Shown here: one piece after another, positions 45,613-64,000 of the stretch
Layout: each line of letters opens with the position of its first letter
How positions within the stretch are numbered: the first letter of the stretch is position 1
From: Aulosira sp. ZfuVER01
GTDB lineage: Bacteria > Cyanobacteriota > Cyanobacteriia > Cyanobacteriales > Nostocaceae
Assembly: GCA_034530615.2 (NCBI GenBank)
Contig: JAVRCV020000025.1
Span: 161,453 to 225,452, forward strand
Direction: 5' to 3'
DNA: 64,000 nt
Translations under genes and position numbers: made by a program
The notes under the pieces: generated by a model
Told to the model about the DNA's origin: nothing
Database searches by the model: none
Seen by the model: only the letters and a program-made list of their open reading frames with translations

Positions 45613-46641
45613 TTATTTCAGCAATCCCACTAGTGAATTAGAACCAGAAATTACTTCACCGATCGCAAAAGCTGGAATATCTTGTGATTGAAAGTAGGTA
45701 ATTGCTTGTTCTACGTGCTGGGGTGGAACTAATAGCACAAAGCCAATACCCATATTGAAAGTGTTGTACATCGCTTCTGGACTTACTCCTCCAGCTTCAG
45801 CCAACCACTGAAATACAGGGGGGATCGCCCAACTATTGGGATCAATTTGAATTGCTTGACCTGTTCCTAAACATCTGGGTAAATTTTCTGGCAAACCACC
45901 ACCTGTGATGTGTGCCATACCGTGAATTTCTAAACCTGCTTGACGTGCAGCTAGCACGGGTTTGACGTAAATGCGTGTAGGTGTGAGGAAAGTTTCTCCG
46001 ATAGTTTCGCCACCTAATAACTCTGGGCGATCAGTCCAATCGAATTCGCGATCGCTAGCAATCTTTCGTACTAAACTCAAGCCATTACTATGTATACCAG
46101 AACTAGCAAGAGCGATCGCTACATCTCCTATTTGGACTTGGGAACCATCTAGCATCTGGCTTTTTTCGACAATTCCCACCGAAAATCCAGCCAAGTCATA
46201 CTCACCCACTTGGTAGAAACCAGGCATTTCTGCTGTTTCTCCTCCTAGCAAAGCACAACCAGCTTGCTTACATCCAGAGGCGATACCCGCAACCACCTCA
46301 GTTAGTTGCTCTTTCTCCAACTTACCTGTTGCCAAATAATCTAAGAAAAACAACGGTTCTGCCCCAGATGTCAACACATCATTGACGCACATCGCCACTA
46401 AATCAATACCTACAGTGTCATGGCGGTTGAGAATTTGAGCGATTTTTAGCTTTGTACCTACGCCATCTGTCCCGGAAACTAATACTGGTTCCCGGAAACC
46501 GCCTGGAAGTTGGAAGCAACCACCAAAACCACCCAGTCCACCAATAACCTCCGGTCTAAAGGTGCTGTGAACCAAATTGCGAATTTGATCTACAAAGGCT
46601 CGACCAGCCTCAACATCAACCCCGGCATCGCGATAATCCAT
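45613..46641 (-). CDS. purM: Phosphoribosylformylglycinamidine cyclo-ligase (AIR synthetase)
   Basis: [42 protein letters not shown]. Confidence 0.97.
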
Positions 46642-46762
46642 TCCTGACTGCACTGTTATCAATTTGTTACAAACTCAGACCATCATCATACATCTTTATA
46701 TTGTGGTACAGCTTTGGCTATGCACAATTTCTCTAGGAATGAGTTAAAAACCACTACAAATC

Positions 46763-48583
46763 TTAAGTTTTTGCTTTTACTGATTTTTTATACCTATCTG
46801 GATACTTCCGTTGGAAATATTCTTCCATAATTTCTAAAATCATCGGGGCTGCAATGCTACCGCCGCCGCCACCGGAATGTTCAGCAAAGGCTACTATCAA
46901 TAACTCTGGCTTGTCAGATGGGGCATAAGCACCAAACCAAGCGTGATTTTGTTTCACACCCCGGTTCCAGGCTTCGGCTGTGCCACTCTTACCAGATACA
47001 GGGGGAATTGTCTGTTGATTCAACGCTTTACCTGTACCTTCAGCTACCACCTTCCGCAGTCCTTCCCGCAGAACCTTAATAGTTGTCGGTTTCATATCTA
47101 ATGATGAACGCCAATTTTTTGCCTCTTCATGATCTTTGAGTAAATGTGGCTGAACTCGATAGCCACCATTAGCGGGCACAGCAAACATAATCGCAACTTG
47201 TAGGGGTGTGGTTTGTAAAGCACCTTGACCAATTGACATATTGATACTGTCGCCTACAGTCCAAGGCATTTTCCACACTTTCCGCTTCCATGTTTCATCG
47301 GGAACTAAACCTTTAGTTTCTTCAGAAGCAAACTCAAAGCCTGTTTTTTGCCCAAATCCATACTTACGAGTCCATTCAATTAAAGTCGGGCCACCAACTG
47401 CCCTCCCAATTTGATAGAAGAAGGTATCACTACTCCACTGTAATGCTCCAACAAAACCCAAAGGCCCGAAGCCGGCGTGGTTCCATTCACCAAAAGTAGT
47501 ACCACCAATATTCAAGGAACCGTAGGTTTGTAGGACTGTGCTGGGAGAAAATTTACCCGATTCCAACCCTGCTGTTGTGGTGACAATTTTGAAGGTACTA
47601 GCAGGGGGAAAAGCGCTGAGGGCGCGATTGACCAAGGGATGTTCTGCACCTTGTACCGTTTCCCAATCTTTTTGCGAGAGTTTCTGCTTGGAGAAAATAT
47701 TGGGATCGAAGGTAGGGTGAGACACCATTGCTAAGACAGCACCGTTGTTGGGATCGAGTGCCACGATCGCACCATTGCGATTACCCAAAGCTTTTTCCGC
47801 TGTCCGTTGCATGTCCAAATCTATGGTCAAGTGCAAATCGTTACCAGCCTTTGCTTGTTTTTCTCCTAAAACCCGCAGTGGTCGCCCAGCACCATCCACT
47901 TCTACCTGTTGACCGCCCCATTCGCCTCTAAGTGTTTTCTCATAAGCTTTTTCGATCCCCATTTGACCGATGACATCTCCCAAGCGATAGCCATCTTGCT
48001 TCTTATCTTTTAACTGTTCGGGTGTCAGTTCACGAGTATAGCCCAGTACATGAGCTACTTCCTTGCCGTGGGGATAATAACGCACAGCTTCCAGATGGAT
48101 TTCTACATCTGTTAGTTCGCTTTGATACTCTTTTAATGCGGTAATTTCAGCTTCATTGAGATCCCGCGCAATTCTAATCAGCGATGAAGAATTCCTACCT
48201 GCTTCTTCTAGCTTTTTCTCAATTTCTGCTTGAGGAATTTCCAGAATTTTGGAGAGACGCGCACCCACCACTGGCCAAGAAGGTTTGGTGTGAGCCATTG
48301 GCCATAAATATACAGAACGCGGATAGCGAGTACTAGCTAAAAGTTTGCCATTGCGGTCAAAAATATTACCCCTTTCTGGCTGTTTGGGGATCATTCTAAT
48401 GCGGTTGGACTCGGCTCGCTTGCGGTGATTTGGACCTTCAACGATTTGCAAGTATGCCAAACGCGCACCTATGGCACTTGTCGTTAATAGAGTAAATACA
48501 ATCAGAAATATTGCCTGAAAGCTTCTGCCAACTGTACGTGTATTTTTCTGATTGCCAAATGGATTTGGTTGCAATAATGCCAT
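46763..48583 (-). CDS. mrdA: Penicillin-binding protein 2 (class B), copy 1
   Basis: RGNIFDRNG, PPASTFK (SxxK), SSD, KSGT, HAWFGAYAP. Confidence 0.93.
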   Translation of the reverse strand: MALLQPNPFGNQKNTRTVGRSFQAIFLIVFTLLTTSAIGARLAYLQIVEGPNHRKRAESNRIRMIPKQPERGNIFDRNGKLLASTRYPRSVYLWPMAHTKPSWPVVGARLSKILEIPQAEIEKKLEEAGRNSSSLIRIARDLNEAEITALKEYQSELTDVEIHLEAVRYYPHGKEVAHVLGYTRELTPEQLKDKKQDGYRLGDVIGQMGIEKAYEKTLRGEWGGQQVEVDGAGRPLRVLGEKQAKAGNDLHLTIDLDMQRTAEKALGNRNGAIVALDPNNGAVLAMVSHPTFDPNIFSKQKLSQKDWETVQGAEHPLVNRALSAFPPASTFKIVTTTAGLESGKFSPSTVLQTYGSLNIGGTTFGEWNHAGFGPLGFVGALQWSSDTFFYQIGRAVGGPTLIEWTRKYGFGQKTGFEFASEETKGLVPDETWKRKVWKMPWTVGDSINMSIGQGALQTTPLQVAIMFAVPANGGYRVQPHLLKDHEEAKNWRSSLDMKPTTIKVLREGLRKVVAEGTGKALNQQTIPPVSGKSGTAEAWNRGVKQNHAWFGAYAPSDKPELLIVAFAEHSGGGGGSIAAPMILEIMEEYFQRKYPDRYKKSVKAKT

Positions 48584-48768
48584 AAAACAATAAGTACTGC
48601 AAAATTAATATTATGCGTATACAATTATGCTGAGTCTGTACCCGGCATTAAATACTATTTCACTGGGAAAAGTATAAAGGATGAAGTACTAGCTATGCAC
48701 TTCAGCCTTTATCCTCAAAAGTCAAAATTCAAAAGTCTAGAATTTTTGAACCAATGACCATTGACATA

Positions 48769-50613
48769 TTAGTCTCCAGTGCTACCTCCAGCATTCTGAT
48801 TCTTACCTTCAGATTCAGGTTTTTGATACTTGCCTGGATACTTATGTTGAAAATAAGCTTCTAGCACTTGTAACGCCATTGGGCCACAAACAGTACCACC
48901 GTGATCCCCAGAGTTTTCACCAAAGGCTACCACAACAATTTCTGGCTTATCGCTGGGTGCATAAGCGCCAAACCAAGTGTGATTTGGGCGACCAGCACCG
49001 GCTTCAGCAGTACCACTTTTGCCTGAGGCTGGGGCAATTGTTGGCACATTCAACCGCTTACCTGTACCATCACTTACCACCTTCCGCAATCCGTCCCGGA
49101 GAACTTTGATGGTTGTTGGCTTCATATTTAATGAAACTCGCCAGCTTTTTGCTTCTTCATGGTCTTTGAGCAAATGCGGCTTGACTCGATAGCCGCCGTT
49201 AGCAGGGACAGAAAACATAATTGCTGATTGCAGAGGTGTCACCTGTAAAGCACCTTGACCAATTGACATATTGATAGTGTCACCTACAGTCCAAGGTATT
49301 TTCCAGGTTTTCTGCTTCCAATTTTCATCTGGTACTAAACCTTTTGATTCTTCGTTGGCAAACTCAATCCCAGTTTTTTGACCAAACCCATATTTGCGAC
49401 TCCAGGCGATCAAATCTGGCCCGCCAACTCTTCTACCAACTTGATAAAAGAAGGTATCACTACTCATGGCGAGTGCACCTGGAAATCCCAAAGGACCGAA
49501 TCCGGCGTGGTTCCATTCACCAAAGGTTACGCCACCTACAGTCAAGGAACCGAAGGTTTGTAATACTGTGTCAGGCGAAAACTTTCCTGTTTCCAAGCCG
49601 GCTGACGCGGTAATAATTTTGAAGGTACTAGCTGGTGGAAAGGCACTTAAAGAGCGATTGACTAAGGGATGATCTTTACCTTGTACAGTTTCCCAATCCT
49701 TTTGAGAGAGTTTTTGCTTGGAAAAAATATTCGGGTCAAATGTAGGGTGAGAGGCCATTGCTAAGACAGAGCCAGTATTGGGATCAATTGCTACAACTGC
49801 ACCTTGAAATTTCCCTAAAGCGTTGTCTGCTGCTTTTTGCAAATTTAAATCTATGGTCAAGTGCAAATCGTTACCAGCTTTGGCCTGCTTTTCTCCTAAA
49901 ACCCGGATGGGACGACCAGCACCATCTACTTCTACCTGCTGACCACCCCATTCGCCTCTGAGTGCTTTCTCATAGGCTTTTTCCACACCCATTTGCCCAA
50001 TGACATCTCCCAGCCTGTAGCCTTCTGCCTTTCTGTCTTTTAACTGTTCCGCAGTTAATTCTCTTGTATATCCGAGTACATGAGCTAATGCTGCGCCGTG
50101 GGGATAGTAGCGAACAGCTTCCGTATTAATTTCTACCTCAGGGAGTTCGTTGGCATACTCTTTTAATGCCGTGATTTGTGCCTCGTTGATATCGCGTGCA
50201 ATCCGGATGAGTGAAGAAGAATTAGCACCTGCCTGTTGGAGTTTCTTTTCCATGTCATCTTGGCTAATGTTAAGAATTTTCTCCAGGCGGGGTGCGACAA
50301 CTGACCATGAAGGCTTAGTGTGAGCCATTGGCCACAAATATACAGAATGAGGATAGCGAGTACTAGCTAAAAGTTTGCCATTGCGGTCGAAAATATTGCC
50401 CCGTTCTGGTTGTTTAGCAATCATACGAATGCGGTTAGATTCGGCTCTATGACGCAGTTTTGGCCCTTCGACAATTTGCAAATAAGCTAGACGAGCATCA
50501 ATCCCAGCCGTCATCAATAATGTAAATCCGATTAAAAATATTGATTGAAAACCACGACCAACTGTACGTGTATCTCTTTTGCTACCTGGTAGAGCTGATG
50601 GTAATAAATCCAT
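48769..50613 (-). CDS. mrdA: Penicillin-binding protein 2 (class B), copy 2
   Basis: Same motifs; collinear tandem paralogue. Confidence 0.93.
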   Translation of the reverse strand: MDLLPSALPGSKRDTRTVGRGFQSIFLIGFTLLMTAGIDARLAYLQIVEGPKLRHRAESNRIRMIAKQPERGNIFDRNGKLLASTRYPHSVYLWPMAHTKPSWSVVAPRLEKILNISQDDMEKKLQQAGANSSSLIRIARDINEAQITALKEYANELPEVEINTEAVRYYPHGAALAHVLGYTRELTAEQLKDRKAEGYRLGDVIGQMGVEKAYEKALRGEWGGQQVEVDGAGRPIRVLGEKQAKAGNDLHLTIDLNLQKAADNALGKFQGAVVAIDPNTGSVLAMASHPTFDPNIFSKQKLSQKDWETVQGKDHPLVNRSLSAFPPASTFKIITASAGLETGKFSPDTVLQTFGSLTVGGVTFGEWNHAGFGPLGFPGALAMSSDTFFYQVGRRVGGPDLIAWSRKYGFGQKTGIEFANEESKGLVPDENWKQKTWKIPWTVGDTINMSIGQGALQVTPLQSAIMFSVPANGGYRVKPHLLKDHEEAKSWRVSLNMKPTTIKVLRDGLRKVVSDGTGKRLNVPTIAPASGKSGTAEAGAGRPNHTWFGAYAPSDKPEIVVVAFGENSGDHGGTVCGPMALQVLEAYFQHKYPGKYQKPESEGKNQNAGGSTGD

Positions 50614-50823
50614 AAAACAAGATTATGATGGCGAAATTTAGTATTACTTGTATACACGAGCTTATAAACGGCTACTCAGTAAGAATCGTCAAATAATTAC
50701 GAGAATATCTTCCCAATCAATTGTTTTTGACGGATACAATGAACCAAAGTGCTTGGGTAGGCTGCTTAATAGACTACCTCAAAGGGCACAATCACGTAAG
50801 CTCATGGCATTTTACTGAGGATT

Positions 50824-51951
50824 ATGGCTCAAACTGTAACGCAGAATCAGGGGGAGATGATGGCTTTGCAGCCGCTTGATGTTGAGCTGCGTAATGTGTT
50901 CAAGTTTTTTAACCAAGAACCGGCAGTCAATGGAGTAGATTTGGAAGTTAGACAAGGAGAATTTTTTAGTATCCTAGGTCCTTCTGGTTGTGGCAAGACA
51001 ACTATATTACGTTTGATTGCGGGGTTTGAACAAGCTGACGCTGGTAAGGTATTGATTCAAGGTCAATCTATGACTAATGTCCCTCCTTACCGCAGACCTG
51101 TCAATACGGTATTTCAAAGCTATGCACTGTTTAATCATTTGAATGTGTGGGATAACATTGCCTTTGGACTGCGATTAAAGAAATTTCGTAAACCAGAAAT
51201 CGATCGCCGAGTCAAAGAAGCTTTAAAGCTGGTGAAAATGGAAAGTTTGCGATCGCGCTTTCCTAATCAGCTTTCTGGGGGACAGCAGCAACGGGTAGCT
51301 TTAGCTAGGGCTTTAGTTAACCGTCCCTCCGTCCTCTTACTTGATGAACCCTTGGGAGCCTTAGATTTAAAGCTACGTAAGGAAATGCAAGTCGAGTTAA
51401 TCAATTTGCATAAAGAATTAGGCTTAACCTTTATCATGGTGACTCACGACCAAGAAGAAGCTTTATCCTTAAGCGATCGCATCGCTGTGATAAATCAAGG
51501 CAAAATTGAGCAAGTTGGTACTCCCAGCCAAATTTACGAATTTCCCCGTACTTCTTTTGTTGCTGATTTTATTGGTGATACTAATTTATTTAGTGGTGAA
51601 ATTGTTGCAGTAGAAGCCTCTACCGTCCAAATCCAAACCAAAACAGGACTAACAATTGTCGTTAACCGTAATGAAAATACACCTATTGAAGCAACCGAAC
51701 CAGTAGTAGTCAGCATCCGCCCAGAAAAAATTCAACTCTCGCTTTACCCGCCTAACTTGCCAAGTAACTGCTTTGAAGGAAGGCTTGTCAATATCATGTA
51801 TTTAGGAACTCATGTTAATTATGTTGTGGAATTGATCAACGGCATTAGCATTAATGTTTTGCAACCTAACACCATTGGTAGCTTACCAGACCCTAATACA
51901 CCTATATATGCTTGGTGGACAGAAAGTGATTGTTTGGCTATTAGTCAATAG
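50824..51951 (+). CDS. potA: Polyamine ABC transporter ATP-binding subunit
   Basis: [44 protein letters not shown]-like C-terminus. Confidence 0.93.
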
Positions 51952-51989
51952 GCTTTTGTCATTAGTCATTGGTCATTTGTCATTTGTGT
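51941..51989 (+). repeat. STRR-type heptamer array TT(T/A/G)GTCA, left arm
   Basis: TTAGTCA ATAGGCT TTTGTCA TTAGTCA TTGGTCA TTTGTCA TTTGTGT; begins inside the last potA codons. Confidence 0.9.
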
Positions 51990-52059
51990 TTAGCTAATGA
52001 CAAAAAATAAATATCAATCATAATTGCTGGAAAATATGTAAACTATTAGCAACTAATAA

Positions 52060-52455
52060 ATGGCGACTAAGCGTTTCCAGGAGTTACAAGTTTATCAATT
52101 ATCAGAACAATTAGCAGATGACATTTGGAAAATAGTTGCCGGATGGCATTTCTTTGCCAAGGATACAATTGGTAAACAGATTGTACGTTCCGCAGATAGC
52201 ATAGGAGCAAATATAGCAGAAGGCTTTGGCAGAGGTAGTTATCAAGAAAATAAACGTTTTATCAAGATAGCGCGAGGCTCATTAAATGAAACTCAACATT
52301 GGCTAAGACGAGCTTACACTCGTAATCTTTTAACTACTGAACAGATAAATTCAATACTAATAATCATTAATGAACTAGCACCAAAATTAAACTCATATCT
52401 CAACTCAATTGGTAATCTATCAAATGACAAATCACAAATGACTAATGACAAATGA
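52060..52455 (+). CDS. Four-helix-bundle protein (23S rRNA IVP / TIGR02436 / Avd-like family)
   Basis: FQELQVYQLS...QIVRSADSIGANIAEGFGR...FIKIARGSLNETQHWL. Confidence 0.92.
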   Translation: MATKRFQELQVYQLSEQLADDIWKIVAGWHFFAKDTIGKQIVRSADSIGANIAEGFGRGSYQENKRFIKIARGSLNETQHWLRRAYTRNLLTTEQINSILIIINELAPKLNSYLNSIGNLSNDKSQMTNDK

Positions 52456-52459
52456 CTAA
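52421..52459 (-). repeat. STRR-type heptamer array, right arm, inverted relative to the left arm
   Basis: Plus strand CAAA TGACAAA TCACAAA TGACTAA TGACAAA TGACTAA; contains the four-helix-bundle stop and the potD ATG. Confidence 0.9.
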
Positions 52460-53537
52460 CAGACGAAGATTTTTACAAGGAATAACAGCACTTTCTAGCT
52501 TATCTTTGGCTGGGTGTGGCTGGAGGCTGGCTGATGTCAGAGCTAATGCTAAAACTTCTGGTCAACGCGACCAACTATATATATATACTTGGACGCAATA
52601 TACTGACAATCAATTATTGAAAACTTTTAGTACTCAAACTGGGATGAAAGTCCTGGCGGATGTATATGATTCTAACGATGTTATGCTAGCTAAGTTGCAA
52701 GCTGGCGGTGGTAGTAATTACAGCATTATCTATCCATCTGACTATATGGTACAGAAGATGGTAGAGAAAGATTTATTAATTGAAATAAATCACGATCGCT
52801 TAATCGGGTTGGAGAATTTATTTCCCCGGTTTCAAAATCCTACCTATGACATCAAAAACCGCTACAGTATACCCTTTAATTGGGGCACAACAGGTATAGT
52901 TTATAATTCCGAAATTCTCAAAGCTGCGCCAGAAGATTGGGATTATCTCTGGCAAAATCAAGAGCAACTGAGAAAACGGATGACTTTGCTCAATGATGTC
53001 CGTGAGGTTATGGGTGCAGTGTTGCGAATGCTAGGCTACTCATATAATTCACAAGACGAAACTCAAATTAAGCAAGCTTACGAAAAGTTGAGAGAACTCA
53101 AACCTGGAATTACTGCTTTTGACACCGAAGCTTGGCAAAATCAAATTTTGGCAGGAGATTTAGTGTTAGCAATGTGTTATTCAGCAGATGCAATCCGAGT
53201 CACTAAAGAAAACCCTAAATTGAAGTATGTAATCCCTCGGAGTGGTTCTTCATTGTGGACTGATACAATTGTAATTCCTAAAACCGCTGTAAACATCGAT
53301 GGCAGCTATGCTTGGATTAACTTTGTTTTACAGCCAGAAGTAGCTGCCCAAATTAGCCAACGTCTTAATATTGCTACTCCCAATCTTTCTGGATTTGAGC
53401 AATTGCCTATCAGCTTACAGCAAAATACTAGTTTGTTTCCTCCAGATTCAATTCTAGAAAAATGTGAACGTATTAGTCCTTTAGGAAAATTTGATGAGGT
53501 TTATGACCGCTATTGGACACAATTAACTAGCAGTTAA
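52452..53537 (+). CDS. potD: Spermidine/putrescine ABC transporter substrate-binding lipoprotein
   Basis: RRRFL...LAGC signal, YTW..Y, YDSNDVMLAKL, PSDY, WGTTGIVYN, WTDTIVIP. Confidence 0.92.
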   Translation: MTNRRRFLQGITALSSLSLAGCGWRLADVRANAKTSGQRDQLYIYTWTQYTDNQLLKTFSTQTGMKVLADVYDSNDVMLAKLQAGGGSNYSIIYPSDYMVQKMVEKDLLIEINHDRLIGLENLFPRFQNPTYDIKNRYSIPFNWGTTGIVYNSEILKAAPEDWDYLWQNQEQLRKRMTLLNDVREVMGAVLRMLGYSYNSQDETQIKQAYEKLRELKPGITAFDTEAWQNQILAGDLVLAMCYSADAIRVTKENPKLKYVIPRSGSSLWTDTIVIPKTAVNIDGSYAWINFVLQPEVAAQISQRLNIATPNLSGFEQLPISLQQNTSLFPPDSILEKCERISPLGKFDEVYDRYWTQLTSS

Positions 53538-53577
53538 AAATTAAAATATTTTAAAATTAATATTGTAATTTAAAATT

Positions 53578-54495
53578 ATGTCTAATCAAACTTCTGACAA
53601 TCAAATACATTCAGGAAGTGATGTTGCAAAGTTACAAAAATTGCAACATTCAAATTTCAGTTGGCTCCAGCCTTTAATATTACTGGCACCCTCTGGTATT
53701 TGGTTGGTACTGTTATTGGTACTACCAACATTGATAATTTTTGAGTTGAGTTTAGTACCAAATATTCGACCCGGAGATTTAGTCAATCCTAGTGGATTTC
53801 AAAATTATCTGCGGATATTTGATCCGCTTTATGTTCAAGTAATACTGCGTTCGCTGGGTCTGGCAAGTACTACCACAATAATTTGTTTAATTTTCAGCTT
53901 CCCTGTTGCCTACTGGATTGCTCTAATAGCACCAAAACGTTGGCGAAATTTATTATTATTAGCCTTTATTTTACCTTTGTGGACTTCTTCATTACTTCGC
54001 TCCTATGCTTGGATTACCATTCTGCGTCCTACTGGTTTATTAAATACTGTATTAAAAAGTTTACATTTACAACCTTTAGAGTTACTAAATCGGACACCAT
54101 CTGTATTGATTGCTATGAGTTATAGCTTACTTCCTTACATGGTTTTAATTTTATATGCTTCTCTAGAAAAGTTAGATACACGTTTATTAGAAGCAGCCGC
54201 CGATTTAGGAGCAAATCCTAGACAAGCTTTTTGGAAAGTTACAGTACCGCAAATCTTGCCAGGATTAACTGCTGGTTCAATGCTGGTATTCATTACAGGG
54301 TTAGGAGACTTTGTTAATCCAGAATTACTCGGTGGTGCTTCTAGTATGACAGCAGCACGGTTAGTTTATAACCAGTTTCTTGGTGCTACTCAAAATTGGG
54401 GGTTTGGTTCAGCTTTGAGTATGACATTAATTTTACTTGTCAGTATTGCGATCGCGCTGGTAATTAAGTTTGGTGAGGCTACACCGAGGCGTTGA
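53578..54495 (+). CDS. potB: Polyamine ABC transporter permease
   Basis: LPLWTSSLLRSYAW, LLEAAADLGA (EAA loop), PELLGG, NWGFGSALS. Confidence 0.92.
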   Translation: MSNQTSDNQIHSGSDVAKLQKLQHSNFSWLQPLILLAPSGIWLVLLLVLPTLIIFELSLVPNIRPGDLVNPSGFQNYLRIFDPLYVQVILRSLGLASTTTIICLIFSFPVAYWIALIAPKRWRNLLLLAFILPLWTSSLLRSYAWITILRPTGLLNTVLKSLHLQPLELLNRTPSVLIAMSYSLLPYMVLILYASLEKLDTRLLEAAADLGANPRQAFWKVTVPQILPGLTAGSMLVFITGLGDFVNPELLGGASSMTAARLVYNQFLGATQNWGFGSALSMTLILLVSIAIALVIKFGEATPRR

Positions 54496-54588
54496 TTTAA
54501 CTTGGACATGGGATATTGGCCATGATAGGAAGCAGGAACTTTAATTAATTTGTCAAATTCTTATGACTTAAGTATTTCATTGAGTTAT

Positions 54589-55080
54589 ATGCGCTTACCT
54601 ATCTTTATTAGTGCAGGATTATTGCTGACTCTTAGTTTAAATGCACCAGTTTTATCTCAAACTCCCATCCCAGCAGCACAAACAAGAACTATTGCTAATT
54701 CACAGTTGAAGCAATTAAATGTGAATCGTCAGTTGTGGAAAAAGCAAAATATCCGTAACTATCGGTATAAATTTAGCCGGAGTTGCTTCTGCGCACCCAA
54801 AGCTAGCGGCCCCATCATCGTTAAAGTACGTAAAGGACAAAGGACTTCTATTACTGATGCGGTGGGTAAATCTGTGGATCGAGAATTATTCCAACAATAT
54901 GATACGATTCCCAAGCTTTTCAATATAATTCAGGATGCGATCGCCAAGAAAGCATCTAACCTGACTGTAGAGTACCATCCCAAACTCGGCTATCCAACCA
55001 AAATTAACATCGATTACAACAGTCAGATAGCTGATGAGGAAATATATCTCACAATTGAGGACTTACAGAAGATTAAATAA
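54589..55080 (+). CDS. Secreted DUF6174-like protein
   Basis: Signal peptide; W...NIRNYRY...SCFC, TIPKLF, YHPKLGYPT.I.ID...IADEE. Confidence 0.7.
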   Translation: MRLPIFISAGLLLTLSLNAPVLSQTPIPAAQTRTIANSQLKQLNVNRQLWKKQNIRNYRYKFSRSCFCAPKASGPIIVKVRKGQRTSITDAVGKSVDRELFQQYDTIPKLFNIIQDAIAKKASNLTVEYHPKLGYPTKINIDYNSQIADEEIYLTIEDLQKIK

Positions 55081-55315
55081 TCCCAATTTGAACAGGCTTT
55101 GTTGATGGCTCTGAATGGCAGGATTTCGGGGACTTATTACACAAATATAGTTAATAATCCTCAGTATTTACCACATATATAATTTCTGATTTAAACTTCT
55201 TTAAATGGTTATGGCATAAAAAGCTATGACCATTTTTATTTTTTATCTTGCTCAAAAGATAAATATTTATTTAGTAACAGGGAATACTAAGCATAGTTAA
55301 GGTTTTGTCGTTGCT

Positions 55316-57613
55316 ATGCAATACCTGCTTTACCCGATCGCTATCTACGCTTTCCTACTTTTTATCCGCTATTTCATTACCTTTTTACAACTTTGTAAGT
55401 CTCAATTTCAATATCCCAAATACCAAGTTACACAAGCTGATACTGTTCCTAGCTACCTGAGAGATTTGTTGGAAACCCCAATTAGAGAACTAGAAGAATT
55501 AGGCTTTCAACCATTTAGCTATTTGCAATATCAACCAATGGTAAAAGTCTATCAACCAACAAGTTGGGAAATTCTCTTATATAACAAGGCGTTTAAAAGT
55601 TATGCCACAGTAGTTGTGCGTCGTTTAGTCGAGCCTGTCAATTTATTTGATATAGAGTTTTATACCTTCTTTAAAGAACAAACATTGTTACTGACTATTA
55701 ACGGTAAAGAATTTGCTCTAATTGGTGAAATTCCCAACACAATTATTCAAGATGTTTATACAGATCAAATATCAATGCAATGGCAGACTCATCAAGATAA
55801 GCTTAATCAATTAACTGCTAGCAAAACCCCCCTTGGTTTGCTACCGGAGGCTTTTGCTAAGGCACTACAGATATATATAAGTAACTATGTAAATTATCTA
55901 GCAAAAGCAGGGCATATATTGCCAATTAAAGGAACAGAGTTATTTCAGCTACATTGGCTAACAGCACTGAAAACAGTCAACCCAATTATCCAAGGTAGTA
56001 ATAAAGCGGCAAATATCATTAAGCAACGCAAACAAAAAGCCAAAACTGATTCCAGCATGTCTAAAGAAATCCCGATAGAACTGGAAGTTGAAGGCTTTCA
56101 ACAAATGCAATATTTGCAACAAGGTTTAGTAGGAAAAAAGTTTCGCACCTGGCTATTGTTAGGAAGTTTAGCACTGTTTGTTGCTAGCTATACTCACTAC
56201 CTCAATGCCAAAAGCATTGGAATTTTTATCAGTGTACTCCTGTTTCATGAAGGTGGACACTTATTAGCGATGAAACTGTTTGGTTATCGTGATACTTCTG
56301 TTTTATTCATACCCTTTTTGGGTGCTTTAGCAACCGCCCGCAAAGACGACGCTACACTTACGCAAAAGTTTTGGATATCCCTAGCAGGCCCATTACCAGG
56401 CTTGATTTTGGGGATTGGGTTAGCAATCTTCGCACCTGTTAATAGTGGCTTTCCTGGTTGGGTAAAGGAAGCAAGTTGGACGCTAATTTTTCTGAATTTA
56501 TTCAATTTGTTGCCTGTATATCCCTTAGATGGCGGACAAATTGCCGATTTACTGCTGTTTTCTCGCTTTCCTTATATTGGGGTTTTATTCAAAGTAATTG
56601 GCGTTATTCTTTTGGGACTGATCGGCAAAGATCGACCAGAAATGTTGTTATTTGTGTTTTTGATAGCTTTAAGCATCCCACACAGCTTTCGCAGTGCCAA
56701 AGTTAATGCCAAATTACAGAAAGAACTACGGCAAAACCCACCCACAAATCAAGATAATCTTCTACACTCTATATTCAAATATTTGCAGCGATTCGGCTAT
56801 GGAAACTTACCTTTCAATGCCAAATACACTTTAGTAAAAGAGTTAATTCAAAAGCACTACGAATTGAGTGGTAAATGGACAACTAGAGCGTTTCTCGTTG
56901 TTGTTTACTGTGTGAGTTTGTTAGGCGGAATTGCTGGTAGTGTCCAAGCAATTATTCCTAATTGGGTCAGCGTTTTACCTTATTACTTTGAAAATCCGCA
57001 CCAAAGACGCGAACGTTTGATCAAAAATAGAGAACAAGCAGTTGAAGAAGCGACTGCTGCTATACGTTCTAATCCCGATGATGTTAATGCTTATATCAAG
57101 CGATCGCGGGCTTATATTACGTTACGCGATTATCAAGGAGCGCTAGCAGATTATGACCAAGTTGTACGCTTACAACCTAATGATATTGAATCTCGCTTGA
57201 CTCGTGCCAGTTTTCGTCGCAGGTTAAAAAATTATCAAGGCGCTATTCAAGATTACAATCAGGTCTTAAGCCTTCAGCCTAAAAATGTCAATGTCTACCA
57301 GCTAAGAGCAAAAATGCGTGATGAAATGCAAGACTACAAGGGTGCGATCGCAGACTACAACGAAATAATTAAATTGAATGCTCAAGATACATGGGCTTAC
57401 ATCTCTCGTGGATATGTGCGTCAAAAGCTCCAAGATTACAAAGGCGCGATCGCTGATGCTAACTATGTAATCAAGCTAAATCCGAAAAACCCTCAGGCTT
57501 ATGTTTTGCGCAGTCAAGTCCGTCATCATATAGGAGATACTCAAGGAGCGATCGCAGATAAACAAACAGCAAATAATCTTTATAAAACTATGTATGAGGA
57601 AGATCCAACCTGA
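55316..57613 (+). CDS. M50 (site-2) membrane metalloprotease with C-terminal TPRs
   Basis: HEGGH, LAGP, NLLPVYPLDGG; repeated DYQGAIADY TPR units. Confidence 0.88.
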   Translation: MQYLLYPIAIYAFLLFIRYFITFLQLCKSQFQYPKYQVTQADTVPSYLRDLLETPIRELEELGFQPFSYLQYQPMVKVYQPTSWEILLYNKAFKSYATVVVRRLVEPVNLFDIEFYTFFKEQTLLLTINGKEFALIGEIPNTIIQDVYTDQISMQWQTHQDKLNQLTASKTPLGLLPEAFAKALQIYISNYVNYLAKAGHILPIKGTELFQLHWLTALKTVNPIIQGSNKAANIIKQRKQKAKTDSSMSKEIPIELEVEGFQQMQYLQQGLVGKKFRTWLLLGSLALFVASYTHYLNAKSIGIFISVLLFHEGGHLLAMKLFGYRDTSVLFIPFLGALATARKDDATLTQKFWISLAGPLPGLILGIGLAIFAPVNSGFPGWVKEASWTLIFLNLFNLLPVYPLDGGQIADLLLFSRFPYIGVLFKVIGVILLGLIGKDRPEMLLFVFLIALSIPHSFRSAKVNAKLQKELRQNPPTNQDNLLHSIFKYLQRFGYGNLPFNAKYTLVKELIQKHYELSGKWTTRAFLVVVYCVSLLGGIAGSVQAIIPNWVSVLPYYFENPHQRRERLIKNREQAVEEATAAIRSNPDDVNAYIKRSRAYITLRDYQGALADYDQVVRLQPNDIESRLTRASFRRRLKNYQGAIQDYNQVLSLQPKNVNVYQLRAKMRDEMQDYKGAIADYNEIIKLNAQDTWAYISRGYVRQKLQDYKGAIADANYVIKLNPKNPQAYVLRSQVRHHIGDTQGAIADKQTANNLYKTMYEEDPT

Positions 57614-57780
57614 TATAGACTGCGATCGCTAGTTTATGACATTAATTTCGCAAAGCTTTTCTAATTATTTCTGTATCTAATGCTAATAATTCTGGTATTT
57701 CCTCGCGGCTTAAATTAGGAAACTTGTAGACTACGATTGTCTCTATAAATTCTAGAACTTTTCTTTGATAGATGAGGCTC

Positions 57781-57798
57781 GTAGTTGCGCTTTAGCGC
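57781..57798 (+). repeat. REP (GTAG + palindrome) upstream of the RAYT
   Basis: GTAGTTGCGCTTTAGCGC. Confidence 0.85.
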
Positions 57799-57819
57799 TA
57801 AAACATCCAACAAAGATTT

Positions 57820-58413
57820 ATGTACAAATACCGACAACTTACCTAAGAACAAAAAATAGTTCTTGTCCAAGAAAGATTAGCTAAAGGTTATCCCCCTCAT
57901 TCACCGCCACATCCCATAGAAAACAGTACATTTTATTTGATTACTGCAACTTGTTACGAACATAAATATCGAATAACGAGCAAAGAACGTCGTCAGCAAT
58001 TATTAAATCAATTATTTGAACAATTCACATATCAAGACATAGAAATACTTGCCTGGATAGTACTAACAAATCACTATCATTTATTGCTCAAAAATGTATA
58101 CTTCAAAATTTTAAGTAAAATTTTGCGTTCAATTCATGGTTCAATTGCCAGACAATGGAACCTGGAAGATAACCTAACTGGTAAACTTTGGTGTTCCTTT
58201 AGTGACAGAGCAATTCGTTCGGAGCGACATTACTATACAACTTTGAATTATATTCATTACAATCCTGTTAAACATAATTGTGCAAAATCTCCCTATGATT
58301 GGACTGAATCTAGTGTTCATTGGTATTTAGAAAATTATGGGAGAGATTGGTTACGCAGTTGTTGGATTGAATATCCTCTAAGAGATTATGGTAAAGGATG
58401 GGATGATTTATAG
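57820..58413 (+). pseudogene. REP-associated tyrosine (Y1 HUH) transposase with an in-frame TAA at codon 9; may still be expressed from TTG 57937
   Basis: ATG 57820 MYKYRQLT*EQK...PPHSPPH...YLITATCY; NHYHLL (HUH), W..FSDRAIR, NYIHYNPVKH, W..SS. Confidence 0.8.
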
Positions 58414-59446: not shown

Positions 59447-59667
59447 ATGCAATGCGATCGCAGGGCGATGCATTAATATAACGAGGTGATGCAATGCGAT
59501 CGCAGGTCGATGCGTTAATATAACGAGGCGATGCAATGCGATCGCAGGTCGATGCATTAATATAACGAGGCAATGCAATTCGATTGCAGGGCGATGCATT
59601 AATATAACAAGCCGACGTTATGGCATAACGGGGCGATGCATTAATATAACAAGGCAATGCGATCGCA
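59447..59667 (+). repeat. 42-bp tandem repeat array (2 x 21 bp, HIP1-containing), about 5 units
   Basis: Unit ATGCAATGCGATCGCAGGGCG-ATGCATTAATATAACGAGGCG starting at 59447, 59489, 59531, 59573, 59615. Confidence 0.92.
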
Positions 59668-59688: not shown

Positions 59689-62600
59689 CTACCGCCATTC
59701 TCCCTGTATAGTGAAAGCTGCCCATTCATAAGGACTGCGCCCCTCTTGCCATAACTTGCTTTGCGCTGCACGCAACGCCTCAGCAGGAGTTTTACCTTTC
59801 TGTAACATCTGTTTGTAAAATTCCTGCATCAATACTGATGTACCTTCGTCGCTAACTTGCCACAGTGACACCACAACCCGCGCTGCGCCTGCATACATTA
59901 ACCCGCGTGTCAATCCGACTAATCCTTCACCGTTGACGTTTTTACCCAGTCCAGTTTCGCAAGCACTCAAGACAATTAACTCGGCTGGGTAATCTTGATT
60001 AAACAAATCTTCCAAGCGCAAGTAGCCACTGATGGGATTGCCTTGTTTATCAACTAATGACAGTACAATCCCTGATAGCTCTGGTTGGTCAGAATTGACA
60101 AAACCGTGAGTAGCAAAATGTAAAATGCGGAATTGACTTAAGGCGCTACTAGTTGCGGTATTGTAGTTAGCATCAAAATTTAAAGCTTCTAAGCGGCTGG
60201 CTGCTGGTATCAGTTTTAATATTTCTTTGGCTTCTATTGCAGTATTTTTTAACCTATCCCAACCATTGCGTTTCAAGCTCCTGGCGGAACGCTCCAGTGC
60301 AGAACGTTCGAGTTCAAGGTTAGAGCCAAGTGAGGATTTTTCGGGTTTAGCTGTGACTCGCTCATCAGTAGCACTATATACTGGATCGGCGAGGATAGCT
60401 AAAGCTTTCGCTGCTGGTTGGCGTTTGGCGATTTGTTGGCGTTGAAAGGCAATAGTTGAGGCTGAGGGTAAATTAACAATTTCATGATTTACCATTAATG
60501 GTTGGTATTTATTTGCACTTACATCAGCCAACGCTGCAAAAGGAATGGTTTGCAACGCACCATCAGCAACAATTACTAAACGCTTTCGGGCTAGTTGATC
60601 GGCAACAGGTGCAAGGATGAGTTGAGTAAGTTTTTTTGCCCTTGAGATGGATAAATCGCTAGCTGTTCCTGCTTGCAAGCTTGAATGAAATTTTGTGGCA
60701 ACTTCTTCTATCTCTTTGCGTGGCGGGAGTGTGTAAGCTTGCATCGATGTGGGAGTGACAGCCCACAAATAACTATGTTCATTTCCCAAGGAATACTGCA
60801 ACAGTAGGGTGTCTTTATCGAGTTGTTGCTGAATTTGGGGTAATTTGAGAATGTCCTTTTCCGGATCTGGGTTTGTCAATTTTGCATATACTGGGTTGCT
60901 AGTACGAATTTTTGCTTGTATTTCTTGGTATTGTGCCAGGAGATTTGTAATTTCTGTAGTTAGTTTTTGAATAGATTCTTGAGTTTTTGGAGCGTTATTA
61001 CTTGCTGATGTTTGTAAATTGCGCCGCAGGGTATCTTTAGCATCAATTTGCTGTCGGAAATTACGTTCTTGTGCTACTAATTGTGGGTTTGCACCTTTAA
61101 AAATTTTGGCATGAGCTTCGTTTAACAATTCTATGAGGCTGCGGGCGCGGGAGCGTTCGCTGTAGTGCAAAGCTAATGCATCGTATCCTTGTAATGGATC
61201 TTTTTTGTGCAGTTCCATCAGCAAGTCGATGTAGAATTTGTAAAGATTCTGCTTGGTGGCGAAATAAGAACTGCGGAGTTCTTTGCTGTCAATTTTGGTG
61301 CGTAATTCTTCGATAATTTTGATAGCTGCTTCTACATTGGTGTGGGCTGCTTGCAAGTTACCACGACTGCGTTCTAAGAAAGCGATATTACTAAGAGTAC
61401 TAGTTTCGCCACCCCTGTCACCCACAGCACGATGCAGTAAAAGTGCACTGTTGTAATATTCCAAAGCTTTTTGCTTTTCCCCTAAACCTTCGTAAAGATA
61501 GCCGAGATTATTCAACGTAGTAGCTTCGCCACCTCTATCGCCCACCGCACGCCGCAGTGGCAATGCAGAGTTGTAACATTCCAAAGCTTTCTGCTTTTTC
61601 CCTAAAGTGTCGTAAACATAGCCGAGAGCAGTCAAGGTAGTAGCTTCGCCACGTCTATCGCCCACCGCACGCCGCAGTGGCAGTGCACTATTGTAATATT
61701 CCAAAGCTTTCTGTTTTTCCCCTAAATCGTCGTAAACTCCCCCGATGTTACTCAACGTAGAAGCTTCGCCACTTCTGTCACCTACTGCACGCCGCAGTGG
61801 CAGTGCACTATTGTAATATTCCAAAGCTTTCTGTTTTTCCCCTAAATCGTCGTAAACTCCCCCGATGTTACTCAACGTAGAAGCTTCGCCACGTCTATCG
61901 CCCACTGCACGTCGGAGTGAGAGTGCGCTGTTGTAATATTCCAAAGCTTTCTGCTTTTCTTCTAACTTGTTGTAAACTGCACCGATATTATTCAAAGTGG
62001 CAGCTTCCCCAAGTTTGTCACCTACTGTCCGCAGTAGTGAGAGTGCATTGTTAAAATATTCTAAAGCTTTTTGCTTTTCCCATAAATCTGCGTAAACTAT
62101 CCCGATATTAGCTAAGGTAACAGCTTCTCCACCCTTGTCGCTCACCGCACGCTGGATTGGGAGAGCAGAGTTGAAATATTCTAAAGCTTTTTGCTTTTCC
62201 CATAAGTCGTTGTAAACTAGCCCGATATTAGTTGAGATATTAGCCTCGCCACCCTTGTCGCTCACTGCACGCACGATTGGGAGAGCAGAGTTGAAATATT
62301 CCAAAGCTTTTTGCTTTTCTCCTAAATCTGAGTAAACTAAGCCGATATAAGTTAATGTATTAGCCTCCCCACGTCTATCACCGACTGCACGCCGCAGTGA
62401 AAGTGTGTTGTTGAAATATTCCAAAGCTTTTTGCTTTTCCCCTAAATCGGAGTAAACTGTACCGATATTATTGAGAGTAAGAGCTTCTCCACGCCTGTCG
62501 CCCACCGCACGATACATTGGAAGAGCAATGTTGAAATATTCCAAAGCTTTTTGCTTTTCTCCTAAATTTGAGTAAATTTGCCCGATATTAGTTAAGGTAT

Positions 62601-63519
62601 CAGCTTCCCCTTCCTTGTCACCAAATGTACGCACCAGTGGAAGAGCAGAGTTGAAATATTCCAAAGCTTTTTGTTTTTCCCCTAAATTGTTGTAAACTCC
62701 GCCGATGTGAGTTAAGGTACTAGCTTCCCCTCTCTTGTCGCCCATCGCACGCCGCAGTGAGAGTGCATTATTGTAATATTCCAAAGCTTTTTGCTTTTCC
62801 CCTAAATCGTCGTAAACTCCTGCGATATTAGTTAAGGTATTAGCTTCCCCTCTCTTTTTGCCGATCGCACGCCGCAGTGAGAGTGCATTGTTGTAATATT
62901 CCAAAGCTTTTTGCTCTTCCCCCGAATTGTCGTAAAGTGCGCCGATATTATTGAGAGTAAGAGCTTCGCCATCCTTGTCACCCACCGCACGCCGTAGTGG
63001 GAGTGCATTGTTGAAATATTCTAAAGCTTTTTGCTTTTCCCCTAAATCTAAGTAGACCCCGCCGATATTGGTTAAAGAATTAGCTTCGCCACCCTTGTCG
63101 CCCACCGCACGCCGCAGTGTGAGCGCACTGTTGTAATATTCCAAAGCTTTTTGCTTTTCCCCTAAGTCGTCGTAAACTGCACCGATATTATTCAACGTAG
63201 TAGCTTGCCATTTTTGATCCCCTGCTTTTTGCCACAATGTTAACGCTTGTTGCCATTTTTCTATCGCCTGCTTAAGTGATTCTGCTGTACCTTGTTTAAA
63301 AAGTGCCATCCCTTCTTCATAGGCTTTTGCTGCTGGACTTTGAGTTGCATCTTGCTGGTTTGTAGTTGACTGCTGTGCAATTTGTGTCTGTTTTAACGTG
63401 GCTTTTGCCTTCACTGACTCAGATAATAGAACCACACTCAGCAAGCAGATTAAACTGTAAAACTTAAATTTAGGTTTTAGATATGTGAAAAAATCGCTTT
63501 TTGCGGTTTTATTCTTCAT
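59689..63519 (-). CDS. Exported TPR-repeat CHAT (caspase HetF-associated) domain protein
   Basis: Signal/TM N-terminus, 15 x 40-aa GEKQKALEY-type repeats, HFATHG and LSACETG dyad, WAAFTIQGEW. Confidence 0.93.
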   Translation of the reverse strand: MKNKTAKSDFFTYLKPKFKFYSLICLLSVVLLSESVKAKATLKQTQIAQQSTTNQQDATQSPAAKAYEEGMALFKQGTAESLKQAIEKWQQALTLWQKAGDQKWQATTLNNIGAVYDDLGEKQKALEYYNSALTLRRAVGDKGGEANSLTNIGGVYLDLGEKQKALEYFNNALPLRRAVGDKDGEALTLNNIGALYDNSGEEQKALEYYNNALSLRRAIGKKRGEANTLTNIAGVYDDLGEKQKALEYYNNALSLRRAMGDKRGEASTLTHIGGVYNNLGEKQKALEYFNSALPLVRTFGDKEGEADTLTNIGQIYSNLGEKQKALEYFNIALPMYRAVGDRRGEALTLNNIGTVYSDLGEKQKALEYFNNTLSLRRAVGDRRGEANTLTYIGLVYSDLGEKQKALEYFNSALPIVRAVSDKGGEANISTNIGLVYNDLWEKQKALEYFNSALPIQRAVSDKGGEAVTLANIGIVYADLWEKQKALEYFNNALSLLRTVGDKLGEAATLNNIGAVYNKLEEKQKALEYYNSALSLRRAVGDRRGEASTLSNIGGVYDDLGEKQKALEYYNSALPLRRAVGDRSGEASTLSNIGGVYDDLGEKQKALEYYNSALPLRRAVGDRRGEATTLTALGYVYDTLGKKQKALECYNSALPLRRAVGDRGGEATTLNNLGYLYEGLGEKQKALEYYNSALLLHRAVGDRGGETSTLSNIAFLERSRGNLQAAHTNVEAAIKIIEELRTKIDSKELRSSYFATKQNLYKFYIDLLMELHKKDPLQGYDALALHYSERSRARSLIELLNEAHAKIFKGANPQLVAQERNFRQQIDAKDTLRRNLQTSASNNAPKTQESIQKLTTEITNLLAQYQEIQAKIRTSNPVYAKLTNPDPEKDILKLPQIQQQLDKDTLLLQYSLGNEHSYLWAVTPTSMQAYTLPPRKEIEEVATKFHSSLQAGTASDLSISRAKKLTQLILAPVADQLARKRLVIVADGALQTIPFAALADVSANKYQPLMVNHEIVNLPSASTIAFQRQQIAKRQPAAKALAILADPVYSATDERVTAKPEKSSLGSNLELERSALERSARSLKRNGWDRLKNTAIEAKEILKLIPAASRLEALNFDANYNTATSSALSQFRILHFATHGFVNSDQPELSGIVLSLVDKQGNPISGYLRLEDLFNQDYPAELIVLSACETGLGKNVNGEGLVGLTRGLMYAGAARVVVSLWQVSDEGTSVLMQEFYKQMLQKGKTPAEALRAAQSKLWQEGRSPYEWAAFTIQGEWR
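61400..63210 (-). repeat. Intragenic 120-bp TPR-coding tandem repeat, 15 units
   Basis: C(C/T)AAAGCTTT recurs every 120 bp from ~61461 to ~63141. Confidence 0.92.
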
Positions 63520-63696: not shown

Positions 63697-64000
63697 ATGC
63701 AATTCAATTGCAGGGCGATGCATTAACATAACAAGGCGATGCAACTCAATTGCAGACCGATGCATTAATATAACAAGGCAATGCAATGCGATCGCAAACC
63801 GATGCATTAACATAACAAGGCGATGCAATTCGATTGCAGAGCGATGCATTAACATAACGAGGCGATGCAATGCGATCGCAGACCGATGCATTAATATAAC
63901 GGGGCGATGCAATGCGATCGCAGGGCGATGCATTAATATAACAAGGCAATGCGATCGCAGACCGATGCATTAATATAACGGGGCGATGCAATGCGATCGC
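63697..64000 (+). repeat. Second 42-bp tandem repeat array, same family and orientation, at least 7 units; runs off the window
   Basis: Units at 63697, 63739, 63781, 63823, 63865, 63907, 63949 (37 bp) and 63986 (partial). Confidence 0.92.

Follow-up and report, generated by a model that had tools for sequence, protein, structure and literature searches.

A four-helix-bundle gene packaged between inverted heptamer arrays at the potA-potD junction: a small cassette apparently exchanged, inverted and lost among related genomes

Introduction

Between potA and potD of the cyanobacterium Aulosira sp. ZfuVER01 lies a small four-helix-bundle gene, set between two inverted heptamer arrays that reach from the stop codon of one host gene to the start codon of the other. 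What kind of unit is this, and do its arms matter as paired RNA or as DNA? A sequence-only reading of the window (the whole stretch of 64,000 nucleotides analysed here) had proposed an mRNA-level intervening element, whose arms would pair and loop out the insert so that the host genes remain coupled. Heptamer arrays of the STRR kind were reportedly the subject of work by Mazel in 1990. Here, we compared the junction, its relatives at other sites and the heptamer arrays of the genome as a whole, and weighed the RNA-level proposal against explanations based on DNA.

Results

Anatomy of the locus

The features of the locus are given in Table 1. The name potA, taken over from the earlier reading, agrees with the PF00005 and PF08402 domains of the encoded protein. 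The two arms are inverted copies of each other as had been described, the left one matching the reverse complement of the right at 30 of 32 positions; the two mismatches are G·A and C·C, and the pairing can be lengthened to 38 nt at 89%. The placement of their edges was equally accurate: the left arm lies 3 nt 3' of the potA TAG (51949-51951), the last base of the right arm is the A of the potD ATG (52452), and the heptamer phase extends into host codons on both sides (51940-51987 and 52421-52459; the array itself, called at 51940-51984, takes in the final potA codons). We take the left-arm heptamers to be of the STRR2 type in the STRR1/STRR2 naming.

Table 1. Features of the potA-potD junction, in window coordinates.
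Feature	Position	Strand	Basis
potA, polyamine ABC ATPase, host gene 5' of the cassette	50824..51951	+	ORF call; PF00005 and PF08402
Left arm, tandem TT(T/A/G)GTCA heptamers	51955..51986	+	Repeat and inverted-match analysis
Predicted internal sigma-70-type promoter, ATGACA-16-CATAAT	51997..52024	+	Conserved in type-A cassettes
Four-helix-bundle (IVP / S23p / TIGR02436) gene, 131 aa, pI 9.5	52060..52455	+	ORF, profile matches, structure model
Right arm, the heptamer array in inverted form, with its phase kept as far as 52459 (potD codons 1-3)	52421..52452	+	
potD, solute-binding protein, host gene 3' of the cassette	52452..53537	+	ORF; PF13416

The family assignment of the enclosed gene stands, with matches well above the cut-offs of both PF05635 (108.6 bits against 33.8) and TIGR02436 (102.7 bits against 24), but the gene is not fully enclosed, as its ORF crosses the right arm to end in a TGA that overlaps the potD ATG. 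This overlap was considered as a conserved coupling of the two genes and rejected, other alleles having earlier stops. No Rfam match to rRNA was found in 51800-52600, and the cassette sits between the potA and potD ORFs; a sub-threshold Rfam miRNA match (26.8 against 76 bits) was taken as chance. No site-specific recombinase was seen among the ORFs of 46000-58000, nor at the locus L182 of the ABC junction described below. Comparison with phages gave no match to the cassette, and comparison with plasmids gave 18 records, seven of them conjugative, each at less than 60% identity, so that no close plasmid carrier was found in the plasmid collection.

Elsewhere in the window, a 158-aa ORF of IS200/Y1 type at 57937-58413 scores slightly below the Pfam cut-off (21.8 against 23 bits). 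Arrays of one 42-bp unit, in five and at least seven copies (59447-59660 and 63697-64000), flank a region of 120-bp repeats (61383-63210), and two tandem paralogous ORFs of 606 and 614 aa (46763-48583 and 48769-50613) resemble penicillin-binding proteins by eye.

Filled, decayed and compact alleles at potA-potD

The sequence-only reading had suggested aligning the junction across relatives for filled and empty sites. The end of potA and the beginning of potD could both be placed in 86 genomes, drawn from best matches and biased to close kin; one of the searches took 60 of 135 matches, and in six of those 60 potD did not lie within about 1 kb. The alignment delimited a discrete cassette, of which filled, decayed and compact alleles exist: 34 junctions measure at most 31 nt (four of these overlapping), 20 measure 32-396 nt and 32 are longer, 28 of the long ones holding a full or nearly full gene. 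Within the genus, all 15 genomes carry the gene or a remnant at this place, three copies being truncated. Many of the short alleles retain units of the arms or fragments of the gene, and congeners of theirs are filled (L137 and L139 with L131; L142 and L167 with L122; L138 and L149 with L145), and therefore look like deletions; since 'empty' alleles often contain such remnants, they document loss and not gain. In L149, L125 and L126 the junction has collapsed to a coupled stop-start overlap. The cassette may have been inserted in an earlier short palindrome at a potA-potD overlap, which would fit the four overlapping alleles, as would collapse of a filled allele.

Filled alleles fall into two types, A with TTTGTCA-type arms and a long leader, and B with GTCAAGAG/GTCAATAG-type arms and nearly no leader. 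The words of the two arms are of one type in all 26 classifiable alleles (15 AA and 11 BB; two of 28 could not be classified), with the reservation that the classes were set post hoc and that kin are not independent. On a host tree of 16 alleles, a carrier of type A pairs with a carrier of type B three times. AU tests of this host tree rejected a clade of A carriers (p = 5e-07) as well as one of B carriers (p = 9e-73), and conversely the cassette tree rejected the host sister pairs L007+L015 and L014+L022. Over the 150 nt that flank the junction on each side, L014 and L022 share 97% and 99% of their sequence and yet have different cassette types, which confines the exchange to the junction. 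As judged from these trees, the two cassette types have been exchanged at potA-potD against the host phylogeny.

Other inserts were met at the same junction: a pair of small genes that looks like a PIN toxin-antitoxin module (L043, G029), a 460-aa gene (L042, G024) and a 458-nt gene-less arm pair of a third word (L031/L044, G026).

Inversion and gene-less arms at other junctions

Only seventeen of 82 close homologues sit at potA-potD, and 44 share a single other junction, which separates an ABC permease gene from the next gene (function labels from sequence). There, a sister cassette stands, between strains, in both orientations relative to the operon (19 sense, 25 antisense), the polarity of the arms on the host side being constant; eight changes of orientation are required on a host tree of 42 rows, two of them forced by starred branches. 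Many of these records are metagenome bins, but both orientations are represented by named isolates. Every one of the 32 potA-potD junctions with a match is sense, indicating that flipping depends on the site. The ABC junction of the present genome holds a gene-less type-B arm pair; the four-helix gene was absent from this junction in all 30 relatives examined, and most of the genus has matched AA or BB gene-less pairs there.

At a third site, in a kinase operon, G006 has the cassette where G008 and G000 share a clean 19-nt spacer. In this three-genome comparison the sequences adjoining the site are 97% alike, the gain or loss of the cassette went with replacement of the spacer, and no target duplication was seen relative to G008 and G000. 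Four further genomes (L268-L270 and L272) have unmatched left and right words at the kinase site, showing that arrays can colonise both ends separately. Short tandem units of coding-like sequence, bordered by G-rich arrays, make up a gene-less insert at G000:C34:149162-149610, a junction that is occupied by a four-helix cassette in L241 and L243.

Inverted arms are a trait of the gene family

To each ORF we assigned an arm score, the best ungapped inverted match between its flanks, with a cut-off of at least 14. Among the 5863 ORFs delivered by a simple ORF caller, 68 (1.2%) reach this cut-off and only 12 attain the score of the potA-potD cassette gene, 28, placing its possession of arms far above chance. 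The genome contains six PF05635 matches, three of which pass 14; a broken copy on C63 shows an arm pair in the array analysis, the copy on C4 scores 12 and that on C64 has no arms. Each armed copy has its own word.

The gene family is present in 116 of 121 genomes. A survey of inverted arms around it had been called for in the sequence-only reading, and it revealed a strong enrichment over the 68 of 5863 ORFs above. At 30 family loci, the best match of each of 30 genomes out of several hundred matches, inverted arms (score of at least 14) occur in 28 and direct repeats in three, compared with 41 of 309 cross-paired flanks. The close homologues (the best 80 of 373 plus two from another search, one a duplicate) have inverted arms in 78 of 82 cases and direct repeats in five, counts which overstate the case because related genomes are not independent. 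The enrichment in both samples makes arms a trait of the family.

The close match of the two arms at potA-potD had no special meaning of its own: the left arm finds a match as good as its partner in seven of 150 other arrays of its word family, and the genome has nine places at which it is matched at 30/32 or better. When cognate arms were compared with length-matched foreign arms of the same word, their mean rank was 0.46 (53 loci; 0.5 would mean no fine matching).

Two short GC-rich palindromic inserts interrupt the broken four-helix gene (G000:C63:46020-46553, L006), and its relatives L068 and L075 have a different four-helix lineage with a different word at that junction. GxxExxY genes (TIGR04256) form a second, unrelated family in packaging of the four-helix type, three of four being provided with inverted tandem arms (G000:C7:116207-116584, C80:16664-17041 and C39:21849-22238, with scores of 25.5, 21 and 28). 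Strong inverted flanks were also seen around small genes at G000:C3:70505-70888, C22:72595-73146 and C53:97631-98197, which we take by eye to be one DUF559-like and two RAYT-like genes.

Words follow protein clades

In a protein tree of 64 rows and 106 columns, obtained by a quick search, every clade is marked by a word of its own. GTC-type words characterise the 23 rows that group with the potA-potD gene, Acidobacteria and a planctomycete among them, except for L100 and two rows below the cut-off; the exceptions to the tracking of clades by words are L100, with another word, and L029, which scores no arms. Such tracking is also expected from plain co-inheritance.

The protein is under purifying selection, as indicated by dN/dS ratios of 0.15 at potA-potD and, at the ABC junction, of 0.16 (sense) and 0.20 (antisense). 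Intact copies number 15 of 17, 13 of 19 and 15 of 25, respectively. A promoter-like hexamer pair is kept by 50 of 52 related type-A leaders, compared with about 13% of shuffles, and by none of five type-B leaders; in the window alone, one promoter site against 2.7 in shuffles is not significant. A promoter belonging to the cassette itself is thus predicted from its conservation among type-A leaders.

Heptamer arrays genome-wide

We found 1339 short tandem arrays with a period of 7-10 in this genome, 141 of which have an inverted partner and 44 a direct partner within 700 nt. Inverted pairs have a nearly fixed polarity for each word. Stop codons are followed by 324 G-strand arrays against 109 C-strand ones, and start codons are preceded by 197 C-strand arrays against 88 G-strand ones; the same preference is seen in the word family of potA-potD (33 against 12 after stops, 63 against 7 before starts). 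No called gene lies within 62 of 70 inverted pairs, and major array families have no cognate gene in the genome. The available text of Rehm et al. 2015 describes G-rich heptamers of Xanthomonas and Nostoc with the same polarity and with inverted pairs (PMC4692102). A flush fit between stop and start codons is therefore common to gene-less arrays, and alone it shows no loop-out of RNA.

The same polarity invites the explanation that gene and arms are merely co-located: an ordinary, often transferred small gene, with arrays arising separately after stops and before starts, so that any gene in a spacer looks armed. The polarity rule, in the genome-wide counts as in its published form for Xanthomonas and Nostoc, is what such co-location predicts, unmatched word pairs do occur, and some housekeeping genes have high arm scores. 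Passive co-location nevertheless leaves unexplained the arms at 28/30 and 78/82 loci against a background of 1.2%, the matching words in every classifiable allele, and one word family following one protein clade through many sites and three phyla. We regard it as largely refuted by the arm enrichment, and as very unlikely to be the full account.

That all cassettes could be passengers or relics of DDE transposons and MITEs with decayed outer ends is suggested by elements in other genomes. In G033 (L084-L090), at seven places examined, a four-helix gene is the passenger of an 1896-bp ISL3 element (PF01610) that has arm arrays built into its two terminal repeats and is bordered by target duplications of 8-9 bp; a similar ISL3-type element with a four-helix gene, likewise with arm arrays in its two terminal repeats, is present in G027 (L098-L099); and G098 (L094, L095) has, at two sites and 99.8% identical, a transposase-less element of 550 bp with gene, arms, outer inverted repeats and target duplications of 8-9 bp. 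The arms at potA-potD, at the ABC junction and at the G006 site, by contrast, run from stop codon to start codon, leaving no space for outer terminal repeats, and target duplication was not seen. Neither outer terminal inverted repeats nor a target duplication was seen at potA-potD in comparison with compact alleles; both were found only in the G033, G027 and G098 copies, which belong to other lineages. As a general explanation this one appears extremely improbable.

Predicted pairing of the arms in RNA

Folding of the RNA, also proposed in the sequence-only reading, gave the expected structure: in the model the left and right arms pair with a mean probability of 0.83 and a duplex energy of -38 kcal/mol, the region having a z of -4.8. 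The operon transcript therefore probably forms the stem, as far as the folding model goes. According to the proposal of an mRNA intervening sequence, the paired arms would loop out the insert with potA and potD coupled, or RNase III would cut the message, and the stem would be under selection. The position of the arms is as this proposal expects, with a neighbouring gene at most 15 nt from their outer edges in 62 of 77 cases and in 72 of 76, and left and right arms covary at the level of words in the 26 classifiable alleles. There are also precedents in the accessible parts of the literature, where the Coxiella intervening sequence (IVS) is cleaved by RNase III and has tandem heptamers 5' of its S23p ORF (PMC4990558), and where gene-less STRR hairpins have been proposed to act in stability or translational coupling (PMC2670836). 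The present genome has three RNase III-family matches.

Selected RNA pairing should leave more G·U than A·C mismatches on the transcribed strand. We counted 17 G·U against 37 A·C at potA-potD (17 loci) and, over 32 gene-less tandem pairs flanked by co-directional genes, 30 against 32, while the ABC junction was mixed, with 11 against 6 in sense and 11 against 22 in antisense alleles (host strand); based on ungapped alignments and related loci, this is a weak test. Further observations disagree with an RNA-level role. Cognate arms rank no closer than foreign ones (0.46), abutment of stops and starts is a generic habit of arrays, arms abut convergent genes too (L092), and the predicted stem covers the potD ATG and the region 5' of it. 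In this strain the overlap of the cassette ORF with the potD start offers a route to coupling without any loop, though the overlap is not conserved. Moreover, inversion, swapping and deletion are the clearest behaviours of the cassette, and as DNA events they count against an RNA-level step. Of the compensatory arm changes anticipated in the sequence-only reading, those at the level of words were recovered (26/26), and those at fine scale were not (rank 0.46; duplex matrix alike). The RNA-level step of that reading thus found no support, G·U being unfavoured, fine matching absent and the stop/start fit generic, and we consider an mRNA intervening sequence unlikely.

The protein fold and a possible RNA intermediate

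The structure model of the protein (pLDDT 86.5) has helices at residues 10-27, 31-55, 61-87 and 93-129. It matches 2GSC (TM 0.83/0.94) and also 2RLD, and more weakly the Avd structure 4DWL (TM 0.70/0.85, E 0.011, 12% identity), in agreement with the kinship to S23-type proteins and Avd put forward earlier. The accessible text of the relevant papers describes the four-helix protein of Xanthomonas as a homopentamer (PMC4990558), and Avd, for which homology to the four-helix family is reported (PMC10053308), as a positively charged pentamer required together with bRT for cDNA synthesis by diversity-generating retroelements, or DGRs (PMC6182149); its part in this synthesis is also treated in bioRxiv 10.1101/2023.10.23.563531.

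These similarities raise the alternative of retro-mobility, in which an Avd-like pentamer takes the arm-bounded RNA to a host reverse transcriptase (RT), the cDNA recombines into arrays of the same word, and gene-less STRR hairpins are the non-autonomous copies. Such a route would make sense of the fold match to 4DWL together with the role of Avd in cDNA synthesis (PMC6182149, as far as its available text goes), of the basic nature of the protein (pI 9.5), of the cassette's own promoter-like leader and of the G006 site without target duplication, and the genome does contain two RT matches. Both, however, are on contigs without a PF05635 match, identity to Avd is only 12%, the signature of an RNA strand is absent from the G·U test, and inversion requires no RNA step. 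Retro-mobility therefore strikes us as distinctly improbable.

Discussion

On balance, and with limited confidence, we lean towards reading the potA-potD insert as a small recombinase-less gene cassette, subject to swapping, inversion and deletion between related genomes, that is likely moved by DNA recombination at its arms. The partners of the arms in recombination would be inverted arrays of a related word that hold no gene and are already in place; because such arrays abut stops and starts with fixed polarity, the cassette would land flush between genes in either orientation. A crossover between its own arms would flip it, and slippage between them would delete it, leaving gene-less hairpins or a compact junction. 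Less securely, the basic Avd-like protein might bind the repeat word of its own lineage, as DNA or RNA, and promote its spread, which would explain the joint travel of word and protein. These dynamics are read from genome comparison, in which no circular, linear or cDNA intermediate was seen, and the swaps could reflect ordinary short-tract homologous recombination between strains, without activity of the element. Further points against this reading are the junctions with unmatched words, the exceptions to the tracking of clades by words, the array families that have no cognate gene in this genome, and the three genomes in which DDE elements multiply the copies.

The cassette is real, not a product of chance, and of a kind apparently undescribed. 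A literature search, whose scope left out most subscription journals, found no description of repeat-armed cassettes of the PF05635/TIGR02436 family at operon junctions, nor a link of this family to repeat arms outside rRNA. What is added here is the swapping of two types with tree tests, repeated inversion over 44 genomes, the tracking of protein clades by words, and the negative results on RNA selection.

The closest known relatives are the 23S rRNA IVSs (Coxiella helix 45, Leptospira; PMC4990558). As presented in the accessible part of that source, they share with the cassette an S23p/PF05635 gene in the loop of a long terminal stem, a patchy distribution and lateral exchange, and the Coxiella IVS has features of its own, namely heptamers that vary in number before the ORF, and an ORF in decay. 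In contrast, the cassette lies between protein-coding genes, both its arms consist wholly of tandem repeats, it has a predicted internal promoter and it occurs in both orientations at one junction; being outside rRNA, it is not a member of this class. The STRR arrays and hairpins (PMC4692102; hupS-hupL hairpin, PMC2670836) resemble its arms in their 7-base words, G-rich after stops and C-rich before starts, their inverted pairs and their variable length. In the available text of these two papers the arrays are gene-less and have no link to a protein family, whereas the cassette arms bracket a conserved gene whose lineage the word follows. With the Avd of DGRs (4DWL; PMC6182149, accessible text) the protein shares its four-helix fold and basic character, but no RT, template repeat or target gene adjoins the cassette, whose neighbours are potA and potD, the two RT matches being on other contigs.

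MITEs, REPINs and the REPs that flank RAYT genes are short intergenic inverted-repeat units with gene-bearing and gene-less forms in one genome, as with the cassette. The cassette differs from them in that the enclosed protein has no transposase or nuclease domain, no target duplication accompanies it at potA-potD, and its tandem-word arms enter host codons.

A broader conjecture, which we offer tentatively and regard as rather doubtful, is that four-helix proteins are the engine of widespread transposase-less cassettes, each lineage binding its own 7-9-base word. The cyanobacterial STRR arrays would then be their non-autonomous progeny and landing pads, the ORF-bearing 23S rRNA IVSs would be copies landed in an rRNA helix, and GxxExxY genes would use the same packaging.

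The cassette brings together, in one testable object, a very common protein family with solved structures, the cyanobacterial heptamer repeats and their origin, and the spread of IVSs. The potA-potD and ABC junctions constitute a natural allele series, with two types, both orientations, gene-less arms and compact forms, in cultivable cyanobacteria.
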